Shown in pieces: positions 42,533-64,000 of a stretch of 64,000 nt of DNA (positions are counted from its first letter, which is position 1; every line of letters begins with the position of its first letter). Both the position numbers and the translations under genes were made by a program. Under the pieces are notes generated by a model that made no database searches, was not told the origin of the DNA, and worked only from the letters and a program-made list of their open reading frames with translations. This DNA is from Candidatus Dormiibacterota bacterium (GTDB lineage: Bacteria; Chloroflexota; Dormibacteria; Aeolococcales; Aeolococcaceae): positions 2,723-66,722 of the forward strand of contig PLWW01000018.1 of NCBI GenBank assembly GCA_003153125.1, read 5' to 3'.

Positions 42533-44557
42533 TCAGGCGATGGGACCGAAGCTCCCGGCCAGGTCGCCGTTCACGGCACTCGCGGCTCCGCCGAGGAGAG
42601 CCAGGCCGTAGGCCCGCTCGATGGCGCGCAGCGTGCCGTAGTGGTTGCCACTGGTGGTGACTGCACCCTGGCCCTTGGCGGTGCTGCTGATGACCACGGT
42701 GGGGATCTGGTTGGTGGTGCCTGAGTCGCCCTCGTCCATGGTCACGATGACGGTGGCATTGAAGTTGGTGAACCAGCGCGAGGCGAGCACCGGCGCGAGA
42801 TTGGCCTTCAGCCACGCGTCACCCTGCTGCACGGTACCGTTGTGCATGTCGTCGGTGAGGTTGGGGGTGATCCAGACGAAGCTGGGGTTGCTCGAGTCCA
42901 GTGCCGACGCGATCGAGGTGGCGCCGGGGTACGGCAGCACATGGGCGGCGCAGTCGGTCACTGCAGAGCTGCTCACGAACGGATCGTGCTTCACGACATA
43001 GCCACCGGCGTTGCTCCTGTCGCAGGCTGACGGCATCGACTCCATGTAGGCGGTCCACGAGATGCCGGCCGCGTTCAGCTGGCTGCCCAGGCTGGGAGCA
43101 CCGAAGGCTCCGCAGGTGTCCGAGGTGCACCCCTGGGTGCTGCCACTGGTGAAGGCGAAGTAGTTGGGCTGGCTGGGATGGCCGACGCCGTGCCAGCCGG
43201 TGTAGGTCGCGTACGTCGAGGCGAGGGAGCAGTAGTACGGGTCAGCCGAGCACGTGCCGAGCGTCGCCGCGTAGCCCTTGTTCTCCTCCATCACAACCAT
43301 CACGTGAGGTCTCCCACTCGGGTTTGGCGTGGGAGTCGCGGTTGGGGTGGGGGTCACGGTTGGCGTTGGTGTCGGCGCGGGCGTCGGCGTCGGCCTCGCG
43401 GTCGGCGTCGGGGTCGGCGTGGATGTCGGCGAGGCGGTCGGAGTGGGCGTCGGCGCGGGCGTCGGGGTCGGGTTGGATCCGCTCAGCGGCGCAGAGAGCG
43501 GCACGATCGGGGTTCCGCCCCCGCCGATCGAGGTGGCCGAGTTGTTGTTCACGACATCGAGGTTCTTGAGGATGGTCATGATGTCGTTGGTCCACGGCGT
43601 GCCGCTGACACCGGCGGTCTGGAACGGGAAGCCCCAGGCGCTCTGGAACTGGGCGATCGTCGACTCGCTGCCGGCCTGGGTGTCGATGCTGAAGACGGGG
43701 CGGGCCGTGTCATTGCTGACGTACGCGCCGTAGTGCTGCAACGCCTGTGCCAGGATCAGCCCGGGGCCGGAGAGGCCGAGGGTGGATAGGTCGAGGCTGG
43801 CGGGCAGCGCCAGCAGGGCTCCCATCTTCAACGCGGGGTTGCTGCCACCGTAGCGGGTGGAGCCGTAGCGATCCTCGCGGGTTGCCGGCCAGCGGAAGCC
43901 GCCCGGACCGGCCATGAGGTCGACCTCGCCGTCGATGTTGACGCGCAGCGCGTGGTTGATCGCGCCGCCGGGCACGAGCTCATTGACGCGCAGCACACCG
44001 CCGAGCGTGGAGAGGCCGGAGCCGCCGGCGCCACCGGTGAGGCCGTCACCCGCAATCGAGCCGAAGGCCTTGGCGGACCCGACCGTGGGGGGCGACCCGG
44101 GAGAGCAGCGCGCAAAGGCGCCGCCCTCAACGAGCGTTGTCCCGTCAGCGGCGATGAACGCGTAGCCATTATTGGACGAGGACGATGGCACCACCAACGA
44201 CGTCGGAACGGGCACCAGCGCGACGGGCGTGCCGGCGGTGCAGCGGTTCGAGTGCTGGCCGCCGTTCTTGCTGATCATCGTCGCCGGCGCAGCGGGGTCC
44301 ATGAGGATCACTGTCTGGTCGGGAGTCAGCGCACGGATCGTCGGTGGCGCGATCCTCGCAGCGACGTACATCGCGTTGCTGCCGATGGGCTGGTTCCAGA
44401 TCGACGTGTTCGAGAAGGGCTGCGTGTATGCGTCGCGTCCGTTGCCGGATGCAAGGCCGGTGTTGGCAACCGCCACCGACGGGTGTGACTGCGCGAATGC
44501 CGCGGCCAGGACGAGCGTCGCCGCAAGCGAGATGAACGAGGCACAGCGTCGGATCAT
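42533..44557 (-). CDS. Secreted two-domain protein: N-terminal about 340-aa unknown domain, a PT linker and a C-terminal phosphoesterase-like domain (paralog family member A)
   Basis: Signal peptide [22 protein letters not shown]. The N-terminal domain ([10 protein letters not shown]...[14 protein letters not shown]) is homologous to the C-terminal domain of the 55864-59949 protein. The PTPTP linker is at about 43320-43480. The C-terminal domain has [12 protein letters not shown]...[11 protein letters not shown]...NLTDDMHNG...VIVTMDEGD motifs. Confidence 0.7.
43320..43480. repeat. Low-complexity Pro/Thr-coding linker (PTPTP)n in paralog A
   Basis: GGNGTNGG/CGNCGG-rich simple sequence on the plus strand encodes [47 protein letters not shown]. 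Similar linkers occur at about 31140-31370, 48900-49020 and 56650-56770. Confidence 0.8.
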
Positions 44558-44903
44558 GTCTGATCCCCTTGTGATGGCAAACGCATACCTAAGAGGAGCG
44601 TCACCGAAAGTTCTGAGTCGGCCCCGGTGTCCAGTGGCTCATCCCGGCTCGACTCAGAACTACTGGTGATGTCACGTGCGGCGGCGTTTGCCGTTGTTCG
44701 ACCTGCGATGCAGTCTGCGAGCCCACTGACGCGATCGATCGCAACGTCGGGTGTCCCGTGACGTCCTCGTTACCGGTATCCGATTGCTCGTCATACCGTC
44801 ACAAGGCGCGGCATCACACATGCCGCCGTGGCTCACCGTCACGCGCCTCGCGTGTCTGTGTGTGCGGAGCGCGCAGCGGCGCGCTACACGCGCAAGCGTT
44901 CCG

Positions 44904-62353: not shown

Positions 62354-62714
62354 GGTGACGCCCCCATTTTCATCGTGTCGAACAATGCTCTCCGCGAGCG
62401 AAAAGCGCGGTCGCCCATCGCCACGGAGCGGCACAGCATACGCCGCGTGAACGTGCTGGACCGGGTCCGAACTCCGCCCGTGGAGGCCGAGTCGCTCATC
62501 CGTTTCAGACGCTGCAACTGCCCCAGATATCGCTTGCGGGGCAAGGAATCCCAGCCCGAGCTCGGGAGGGATGTGTGGACGCTTGTCTTCCGTCAGTTCA
62601 AACGGCGCAACCGCGCCAGCCGTATCCGATACACTACTGTGACCGGGGGTCTCTTGCGCTACTGGCGTCTCGACACCCGGCTTCGGGAAGGGCCCGGATG
62701 GGAGGGCGACGGTG

Positions 62715-64000
62715 ATGGGGGGACGTGTCGTGAGTCTGCCCCCAACGGCATGCCTCTCGAAGCGATCGACGGCGACCACACGTGCGCATCGGCAAGGCCG
62801 TGCGGTCGGTGCGGCGCTCCTCCTCATGGCATTGAGCTCGCTGGCCGGGACGGTCCCGGTTGGGCGGTCGACGCCCGCGGGCGGGGTGACGGCGGCAGCA
62901 GCTGCCGCACCTCCGCACATCATGCTCATCGTCGACGAGAACAAGGCCTACAGCGCCAACCAGGGCACCCCGTACATCATCGGCAACTCCAGCGCCCCAT
63001 ACATCAACAACACCCTGGCGGCCAACTACACGTCGGCGACGCAGTGGTACTCCGACGAGCACACCAGCCCGCTGGACTACCGCGACCTGATCTCGGGCGC
63101 CAGCCAGGGCCCGGGCAATGGCCCCTACCCCGCAACCACGGTTGTCGACGAGCTGAAGTCGGCGGGCATCAGCTGGAAGGCCTACATGGAGGACGCTCCC
63201 AGCGCCTGCTACCGGGGGGGTGACACCGGCAACTACTTCGTCAGCCACAACCCGTTCGTCGACTTCAACAGCATCATCGACACCCCCGCGCAATGCAACA
63301 ACGTGGTGCCCTACTCCCAGGCATCGACCGACCTGAGCAGTGGATCACCGCCCGCCTTCGTGTGGGTCAGTCCCAACCAGTGCAGTGATATGCACACCAA
63401 CGTAACGCCCTGTCCAGGTAGCGCCGTGGCGACCGGAGACTCCTGGCTCCAGAACAACATCCCCAGCATCATGAATTCCGTCTGGTACCAGCAGAACGGC
63501 ATCATCATCATCACCTGGGACGAGTCGGTGAACGGTGACAATGGAGGCGTGAACGGTGGCACCGGCGGTCACATCGCCACCCTGGTCATCTCCGCGCAGT
63601 CCCACCAGACGTACTCCGGCAGCGGCAACCTCTTCGGCATCCTGCGCGGGATCGAGTCCGCCTACCAGGTCAACTACCTCGGTGCCTCCGCAGATCCCGC
63701 CAACGGTGACATCAGCGCCGCGTTCGGACAGGTGCCCACAACCGGATCCATCAGCGGAACGGTCACCGACAGCAACACCAACGCAGCCCTCGCGGGCGCC
63801 ACCGTGTCGTACAGCGGTGGCAGCGCCACAACCGGTGCTGACGGCAGGTATGCGCTGACGACGGTCACACCGGGCACGTACACGGTGACCGCTGCGACCA
63901 CCGGCTACGTCGCCGTCAACCACGGTGTCACCGTTGCTGCCGGCGTGAGGCCGACGCAGGACTTTGCCCTGGCGGCGGTGCGTGCACCGCCACCTCCACC
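62715..64000 (+). CDS. Secreted phosphoesterase-like domain protein with a CarboxypepD_reg-like domain (paralog F); 3' partial at the window end
   Basis: This frame has no stop before the window end, so it is absent from the ORF track. It reads MGGRVVSLPP...RQGRAVGAALLLMALSSLAGTVPVG (signal), then HIMLIVDENKAYS...PNQCSDMHTN...IIIITWDESV..., then ISGTVTDSNTNAALAGATVSYSGG...GTYTVTAATTGY. Confidence 0.65.
   Translation, partial: MGGRVVSLPPTACLSKRSTATTRAHRQGRAVGAALLLMALSSLAGTVPVGRSTPAGGVTAAAAAAPPHIMLIVDENKAYSANQGTPYIIGNSSAPYINNTLAANYTSATQWYSDEHTSPLDYRDLISGASQGPGNGPYPATTVVDELKSAGISWKAYMEDAPSACYRGGDTGNYFVSHNPFVDFNSIIDTPAQCNNVVPYSQASTDLSSGSPPAFVWVSPNQCSDMHTNVTPCPGSAVATGDSWLQNNIPSIMNSVWYQQNGIIIITWDESVNGDNGGVNGGTGGHIATLVISAQSHQTYSGSGNLFGILRGIESAYQVNYLGASADPANGDISAAFGQVPTTGSISGTVTDSNTNAALAGATVSYSGGSATTGADGRYALTTVTPGTYTVTAATTGYVAVNHGVTVAAGVRPTQDFALAAVRAPPPP

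Follow-up and report, generated by a model that had tools for sequence, protein, structure and literature searches.

A 64,000-nt stretch of a Candidatus Dormibacterota genome (GenBank assembly GCA_003153125.1, contig PLWW01000018.1, positions 2,723 to 66,722; this whole stretch is referred to below as the window) ends in an array of six neighbouring open reading frames (ORFs; g1 to g6), which extends from position 42,533 to the window end and in which each ORF carries one phosphoesterase (PE) domain of the Pfam family PF04185. The best explanation of this locus, to which we assign a probability of roughly 0.55, is that it encodes extracytoplasmic, membrane-anchored or secreted modular proteins with phosphomonoesterase domains of the type represented by SapM (Rv3310) of Mycobacterium tuberculosis; judged from their sequences, the proteins are most likely tethered to the cell surface. 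Such arrays are of old origin, occur throughout the phylum and keep a genetic linkage to a cassette for the biosynthesis of a sulfated glycan. Candidatus Dormibacterota are abundant in nutrient-poor soils (Antarctic desert, permafrost, peat); as they are uncultured, all that is said of their cell surface and nutrient acquisition has been inferred from genomes. The locus is a testable candidate for how these bacteria obtain phosphorus and for what their outer layer consists of.

The phosphoesterase domain and its active site

A single PF04185 match was found in each of the six ORFs, with scores of 52.6-93.5 bits (E 1e-14 to 2e-26; the gathering score is 23 bits). The PE domains are 261-289 aa long and all six can be aligned end to end, with 51 invariant columns. 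When compared with PDB sequences, the domain of g2 alone gave only a marginal match to a phospholipase C (PLC; E 0.028). The acid phosphatase AcpA of Francisella tularensis (2D1G, E 2e-6) came up only when all six copies were combined in a profile, which also matched three PLC structures weakly. In the profile alignment the window motif PHVMVIVEEN stands opposite KHVVIIFQEN of AcpA, HNPF opposite HHEPF, DMH opposite QDGH and TWDE opposite YDDSD. An earlier note on this DNA, made from the letters alone, had likened the domain to the AcpA/PLC members of PF04185; the Pfam scores and the profile match to AcpA show this assignment to be correct, and the comparison with SapM sharpens it to the short SapM type.

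Compared by BLASTP with SapM, the window copies show 26-35% identity (E 1e-14 to 1e-42), with SapM residues ~49-290 covered. SapM has been described as an AcpA-related enzyme, an atypical alkaline phosphatase that acts on monoesters, and mutagenesis has shown which of its residues matter: the nucleophile S95, the metal-site residues E59, N60, D238 and E239, the substrate-binding H160 and H204, and K159, which is needed for phosphoinositide binding and whose replacement (K159A) merely lowered the activity on p-nitrophenyl phosphate (pNPP) (PMC6635428). Seven of these eight residues are invariant in all six window copies and are found in 110-120 of 120 homologues; their conservation thus extends beyond the six paralogues. 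The Glu-Asn metal pair of the HVMVIVEEN-type motif (E43/N44 of AcpA) and the Ser of H-x-S-x-P-(N/D)-Y (the equivalent of AcpA S175) are invariant in 6/6 copies and 120/120 homologues. The remaining position, that of K159, is occupied by Lys in g1 and g2, by D, I, D and S in g3-g6, respectively, and by Lys in 61 of the 120 homologues, so that all eight SapM residues are present in g1 and g2 only. It directly precedes the substrate-binding His (KHNPF in g2 vs DHNPF in g3), and its variation suggests two substrate classes within the array. The motif series given in the earlier note does fall on homologous positions in all six copies, but several of its literal patterns fail in some of them: for instance, g6 has DEN in place of [EM]EN, and SP[LPN][DN]Y misses g1 and g2.

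Two other assignments were considered and rejected. The model of phosphocholine-specific PLCs (TIGR03396) was matched with 17-19 bits against a cut-off of 580 bits, and the window domains are 261-289 aa long against ~700 aa. A sulfatase (PF00884), considered on account of neighbouring sulfotransferase genes, would have the motif C/S-x-P-x-R, whereas the window motif S-x-P-(N/D)-Y has Tyr in place of Arg; there was no PF00884 match, and the homology is instead to a characterised phosphatase. Because of the motif alignment, the identity to SapM, the conserved mutagenesis residues and the PLC and sulfatase mismatches, the PE domain, as read from its sequence, is a catalytically intact, short SapM-type member of the AcpA/PLC superfamily. 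Its fold is predicted to be of the alkaline-phosphatase-like alpha/beta type and, by homology to SapM and AcpA, each PE domain would be a metal-dependent phosphomonoesterase with a Ser nucleophile.

A database search with the six-copy profile gave >1,200 proteins, almost all of them 250-470 aa long and with PF04185 as the sole or main domain. Where they are named, their automatic names include [quoted passage not shown], "acid phosphatase" and "phosphatidylinositol-3-phosphatase", and no family-level name for the PE domain was found in NCBIfam.

Integrity of the genes

The window has a GC content of ~68% throughout, and the GC content at third codon positions (GC3) of the six ORFs, 0.84-0.88, fits coding sequence in this DNA. 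The ORFs failed a simple filter on the first two codon positions (GC1>GC2), which is due solely to the high Thr, Ser, Ala and Gly content of their products. ORF calls, GC3 and Pfam matches confirm the six ORFs of the earlier note, with their coordinates and their shared domain; its gene listing was incomplete, since a seventh family-linked gene (g2b) had been missed.

The source of the window is metagenome-derived and the region is rich in repeats, both of which would suit an assembly artefact or a decaying cluster of pseudogenes. This reading is effectively refuted. The six PE domains share 38-63% identity in pairwise comparisons at the protein level (i.e. they differ by 37-62%), and no near-identical DNA repeats are present: between 42 and 64 kb the highest identity is 86%, over a stretch of 44 nt, and longer repeats reach 60-80%. 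These repeats correspond to CarboxypepD_reg units of 88 aa, to TIG units of 87 aa, of which g3 and g5 have three each, and to PT linkers. All six reading frames are intact and high in GC3, the same gene order is found in the independent assemblies L001 (isolate CTOTU10828; 96% identical to g2), L002/L078 and L003, and dN/dS values of 0.16-0.23 against L001 indicate purifying selection. The copies are thus genuine.

Recurrence and age of the array

In a scan of one genome per species 508 relatives were found, and the best 80 came nearly all from metagenome-assembled genomes of Candidatus Dormibacterota. The fetched loci were searched with hidden Markov models (HMMs) of the PE domain and of two further modules of the array proteins, named NTD and domain X (described below). 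Multi-copy arrays turned out to be the rule: 3-5 PE genes, with NTD and X in between, were counted in each of the 20-kb loci L002, L003 (Ca. Aeolococcus gillhamiae), L006, L007, L009, L011, L013, L018, L035, L073 and L077. Across Dormibacterota the arrays comprise 3-7 PE genes: on contig CAWKDT010000020.1 (L073/L076/L007, ~166-185 kb) seven of them lie within ~19 kb, and some of the proteins encoded there have NTD at the C-terminus or twice.

For every window copy an orthologue from another Dormibacterota genome is closer (58-97% identity) than all paralogues in the window (38-63%), and therefore the duplications predate the divergence of these Dormibacterota lineages. The description of the family as recently diversifying, given in the earlier note, has to be abandoned.

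Modular architecture of the encoded proteins

The modules were mapped by BLAST among the window proteins and by Pfam (Table 1). All array proteins have one N-terminal hydrophobic segment, preceded by an Arg-rich basic stretch, and the large members have a Thr+Ser content of 26-32% and an acidic isoelectric point (pI 4.7-6.1). The minimal, membrane-proximal member is g2, in which the anchor is followed by a short linker only. NTD is common to g2b, g3, g4 and g5; g2b, from which the PE domain is absent, is syntenic in L001-L003 and L078. Both strands are used, with g2b/g3 and g5/g6 as divergent pairs. The domain shuffling, the layout on both strands and the putative secretion or anchoring signals that the earlier note had pointed out are thus borne out. 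Of the accessory modules listed there, the IPT/TIG repeats (three each in g3 and g5), the CarboxypepD_reg repeats and the PT linkers were recovered, but the LamG-like end of g3 was not significant (Laminin_G_2, E 0.1).

NTD, a beta-sandwich module of ~215 aa, has no Pfam match; its AlphaFold model is confident and all-beta (pLDDT 94). A word-indexed search gave just 36 relatives, and this near-uniqueness was overturned by an exhaustive HMM search, in which 14,427 cluster representatives were matched at E<=1e-3 and 186 at E<=1e-30. The relatives form part of large adhesin-like proteins that contain disintegrin, Big_3_5, MBG or cadherin-like domains, where they lie at either end or recur several times. 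NTD is therefore a widespread un-annotated module of surface proteins and no invention of the lineage, and its interpretation as a lineage-specific anchoring domain was dropped in view of the HMM matches.

Domain X (~320 aa) has >769 relatives across many phyla, none of them with a Pfam family; in some, the domain is joined to lectin modules of the ricin-B or F5/8-C type, to CarboxypepD_reg repeats or to sorting signals of the type IX secretion system (T9SS). Its structure model is confident (pLDDT 91, pTM 0.91) and resembles a double-psi beta-barrel; MltA-family lytic transglycosylases, expansins and GH45 enzymes are its proposed relatives, with no Foldseek match in PDB and no Pfam match. Two of its Asp residues, D39 and D284 in the numbering of the g1 domain, are invariant. 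Domain X probably serves to bind or cleave glycans and would represent a family that is as yet undescribed. X and PE are fused (g1 and g4) or, in related loci, adjacent.

The adjacent sulfated-glycan cassette

Upstream of the array lies a complete-looking cassette for sulfated-glycan biosynthesis (26076-42425; Table 1), and a further sulfotransferase gene stands between g2 and g1, separated from g2 by a 22-bp gap; this position is kept in relatives of 68-96% identity. In a 78%-identical relative the order is g3-like, g2b-like, g2-like, sulfotransferase, g1-like, GT4, GT4, Wzy_C, MurJ, sulfotransferase, and in a ~60%-identical lineage the cassette lies beside an array of PE genes and separate X genes. 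In at least 17 fetched loci the g2-type gene, the sulfotransferase gene and MurJ/Wzy_C/GT4/GT4 are neighbours, with the cassette proteins (56-98% identity) encoded no more than 10 kb from a PE gene. The linkage of array and cassette is thus conserved across the phylum.

Lipobox-like ...AC/GC motifs are present in both lipoprotein-like proteins of the cassette, and neither has an informative Pfam match. Many related loci have a counterpart of the second one (41235-42425), at 33-96% identity, with the GT4 genes on one side of it and the g1-type gene on the other.

Table 1 Genes and modules of the array, the adjacent cassette and other window genes (window coordinates).
Feature	Position	Strand	Length	Description
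g1	42533-44557	-	674 aa	signal peptide, domain X, PT linker, PE
g1 signal peptide	44465-44557	-		
g1 domain X	43484-44434	-		double-psi-barrel, MltA-like, without Pfam family
g1 PT linker	43319-43483	-		
g1 PE domain	42536-43318	-		SapM-type
g2	45865-47085	-	406 aa	signal anchor, Ser/Pro-rich linker, PE
g2 signal-anchor helix	46906-46974	-		N-terminal
g2 PE domain	45868-46686	-		SapM-type
g2b	47471-49801	-	~777 aa from Met start	transmembrane (TM) anchor, NTD, PT linker, PQQ_2-type beta-propeller
g2b NTD	49028-49672	-		
g2b beta-propeller	47471-48910	-		PQQ_2-type
g3	50110-55827	+	1905 aa	TM anchor, NTD, 3 TIG, PE, 10 CarboxypepD_reg, ~175-aa end
g3 NTD	50350-51009	+		
g3 IPT/TIG repeats	50995-51777	+		3 repeats
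g3 PE domain	51787-52620	+		
g3 CarboxypepD_reg repeats	52630-55287	+		10 repeats, 88 aa each
g3 C-terminal end	55297-55824	+	~175 aa	without family assignment
g4	55864-59949	+	1361 aa	TM anchor, NTD, PT linker, PE, 5 CarboxypepD_reg, X
g4 NTD	56014-56649	+		
g4 PE domain	56770-57636	+		
g4 CarboxypepD_reg repeats	57637-58953	+		5 repeats
g4 domain X	58963-59946	+		
g5	59984-62353	-	789 aa	TM anchor, NTD, 3 IPT/TIG, PE
g5 NTD	61592-62218	-		
g5 IPT/TIG repeats	60839-61582	-		3 repeats
g5 PE domain	59987-60838	-		
g6	62715-64000	+	truncated by window end	N-terminal hydrophobic segment, PE, CarboxypepD_reg
g6 PE domain	62904-63737	+		
g6 first CarboxypepD_reg repeat	63744 onward	+		at least 1 repeat
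ATP sulfurylase	26076-27263	-		cassette
APS kinase	27470-28156	+		cassette
Priming sugar transferase	28167-29720	-		cassette; Bac_transf
Lipoprotein-like protein	30065-31630	+		cassette; with CarboxypepD_reg domain
Gene without assigned function	31582-32484			cassette
Wzz	32491-33585			cassette; weak match
Double sulfotransferase	33536-35566			cassette
MurJ-family flippase	35554-37212			cassette
Wzy_C protein	37334-38833			cassette
GT4 glycosyltransferase	38851-40095			cassette
GT4 glycosyltransferase	40092-41234			cassette
Conserved lipoprotein-like gene	41235-42425	+		cassette; no assigned function
Sulfotransfer_3 sulfotransferase	44904-45842	-		cytoplasmic-type, between g2 and g1
MrfA-like DEAD-box helicase	11524-14142	-		with MZB zinc-binding domain
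GAF-EAL protein	19135-20415	-		cyclic-di-GMP phosphodiesterase
Isocitrate/isopropylmalate dehydrogenase-like ORF	22079-24901	-	940 aa	match limited to C-terminal ~350 aa

Possible function and alternative explanations

If the homology to SapM and AcpA extends to the mechanism, phosphomonoesters would be hydrolysed via a covalent phospho-serine intermediate, at a single metal site formed by the E-N and D-E pairs, with two His residues binding the substrate. From the anatomy of the proteins, the N-terminal anchor would hold the enzymes on the cell, and stalks of different length (none in g2, three TIG repeats, and five or ten CarboxypepD_reg repeats) would set how far from the membrane each of them works, inside the layer of sulfated glycan or outside it. 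Binding or glycan cleavage may be supplied by NTD with its beta-sandwich, by the PQQ propeller and by the MltA-like X. We give about even odds to the view that the enzymes serve to free phosphate from organic phosphoesters in soils poor in phosphorus, and that phosphorylated glycopolymers of necromass are among their substrates.

Several points weigh against this explanation. The genes pst, phoU and phoR are absent beside the array and beside three stand-alone homologues examined, whose genomic neighbours were uninformative, and nothing convincing was found in four upstream regions in the way of a shared promoter or a Pho-box-like motif; with neither Pho-regulon neighbours nor a common motif, a role in phosphate starvation is without direct support. 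The phylum-wide linkage to the cassette is not predicted by simple scavenging. The phosphoinositide-binding Lys is kept only in g1 and g2, and substrates therefore probably differ between the copies. Finally, the SapM sequence used in the alignments was checked only by its length (299 aa) and by its exact fit to the eight residue positions given in the literature.

The cassette linkage and the fusion with an MltA-like domain add weight to a connection with glycans, and phosphoester scavenging and glycan remodelling, the two roles put forward in the earlier note, remain the right pair of hypotheses. On a bolder view, which we consider rather unlikely, PE, X, NTD and the cassette would constitute one conserved envelope apparatus of Dormibacterota, in the form of a coat decorated with sulfated glycan or of enzymes embedded in a matrix. 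PE and X, the latter as a previously unrecognised family of MltA-like glycanases, would act jointly on a phosphorylated glycopolymer (the cell's own or that of necromass). Were this true, an uncultured phylum would possess a cell coat with enzymatic activity of a kind not seen before. Comparably improbable in our estimate is the idea that the PE domains, above all those of the membrane-proximal g2 and g1, process the product or a by-product of the neighbouring Wzx/Wzy-type pathway, either by dephosphorylating undecaprenyl pyrophosphate on the outer face of the membrane or by trimming phosphate from the glycan, while X cuts its backbone. The neighbourhood conserved in at least 17 loci, the short linker behind the g2 anchor, the fusion or adjacency of X and PE, and the retention in g1 and g2 of the Lys by which SapM binds lipid-linked phosphoinositides all agree with it. 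Nevertheless, synteny by itself is no proof of shared function, a housekeeping step at the membrane face is hard to square with six or seven paralogues whose stalks have as many as ten Ig-like repeats, and the recycling of polyprenyl carriers is not known from any PF04185 enzyme, which also counts against this idea. Moreover, SapM-type enzymes are broad monoesterases (PMC6635428).

The Thr/Ser-rich proteins may also be the main coat itself, that is, surface-layer or sheath glycoproteins to which the cassette adds sulfated O-glycans through a Wzy_C-family ligase or oligosaccharyltransferase, as in S-layer glycosylation (slg) clusters, with the enzyme domain as an add-on. Their composition (Thr+Ser content, acidic pI, PT linkers), the presence of structural genes beside a cassette that encodes a priming transferase as well as a flippase and a Wzy_C protein, and CarboxypepD_reg arrays resembling the S-layer glycoprotein of Kuenenia (partial matches to NF052345, E 1e-54) speak for it; the latter matches reach 57-186 bits against a cut-off of 1400 bits, and hence only the repeats are shared. 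Against it stand the strictly conserved catalytic residues, which speak for selection on the enzyme function, and the lack of any sign of lattice-forming domains; the weak Wzz match suggests polymer synthesis instead of protein glycosylation. A coat of this kind, which we consider slightly less plausible still, is compatible with anchored phosphomonoesterases. Far less credible are effectors directed as PLCs or phosphoinositide phosphatases against the membranes of other organisms. PF04185 does include bacterial PLCs, many homologues bear the JGI label "phosphatidylinositol-3-phosphatase", and SapM attacks host phosphatidylinositol 3-phosphate (PI3P) and phosphatidylinositol 4,5-bisphosphate (PI(4,5)P2), yet it has been characterised as a monoester phosphatase (PMC6635428). 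Besides the low TIGR03396 scores, the extra PLC regions are absent from the window copies, the hosts are free-living soil oligotrophs and no secretion-system or toxin-immunity context was seen in the window.

Comparison with known systems

The closest characterised relative, SapM, shares with the array a compact domain of ~250-290 aa that aligns end to end and has the same Ser, E-N, D-E and two His residues; SapM is exported, and for the array proteins export is predicted from their N-terminal segments. Unlike the array proteins, SapM is a single-domain secreted virulence factor of 299 aa, whereas the PE domain is here a module of anchored proteins of 406-1905 aa, present as six paralogues in a free-living soil phylum, with the equivalent of Lys159 kept only in g1 and g2. 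AcpA belongs to the same superfamily and its active-site motifs (ENxxF, HxPF, DxH and DD) can be aligned; it is, however, ~500 aa long with large insertions, while the window copies align only to positions ~105-356 of the Pfam profile and have D-E in place of its D386-D387. With PLCs of the PlcH/PlcN type (TIGR03396; PDB 9GYE, 9GY2 and 8YK5) there is distant homology of the catalytic core, but the window copies are not members of this group, being far below the cut-off and without the PLC-specific C-terminal domains. Kustd1514 of Kuenenia and the slg clusters resemble the locus in their CarboxypepD_reg-type Ig-like arrays and in the position of Thr/Ser-rich surface genes beside a glycan cassette; only the repeat region of the Kustd1514 family (NF052345) aligns, and known S-layer proteins are without a phosphatase domain.

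The catalytic family is thus already known, and what is gained is context and architecture, with no new mechanism. For this reason the claim of the earlier note that the locus is not a standard described system was overstated: the domain family has been characterised biochemically, its homologues are named automatically, and arrays are the norm of the phylum. In the literature on Dormibacterota phosphatases, envelope or S-layers nothing relevant was found, and no description of such arrays or of such a surface apparatus. As far as could be found, four features are undescribed: the architecture of anchored proteins with several domains, the conserved array with its many copies, its linkage to the cassette throughout the phylum, and the association with two large Pfam-less families, especially the MltA-like X. 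Moreover, SapM is a drug target in tuberculosis, and the homologues provide many environmental relatives of it that vary naturally at the phosphoinositide-binding Lys.

Other genes in the window

Scans of the window for Rfam families and tRNAs gave no matches. The helicase and the cyclic-di-GMP phosphodiesterase genes (Table 1) lie upstream of the array and are unrelated to it. The start assigned mechanically to the dehydrogenase-like ORF, the longest ORF at its place, probably lies far upstream of the true one.

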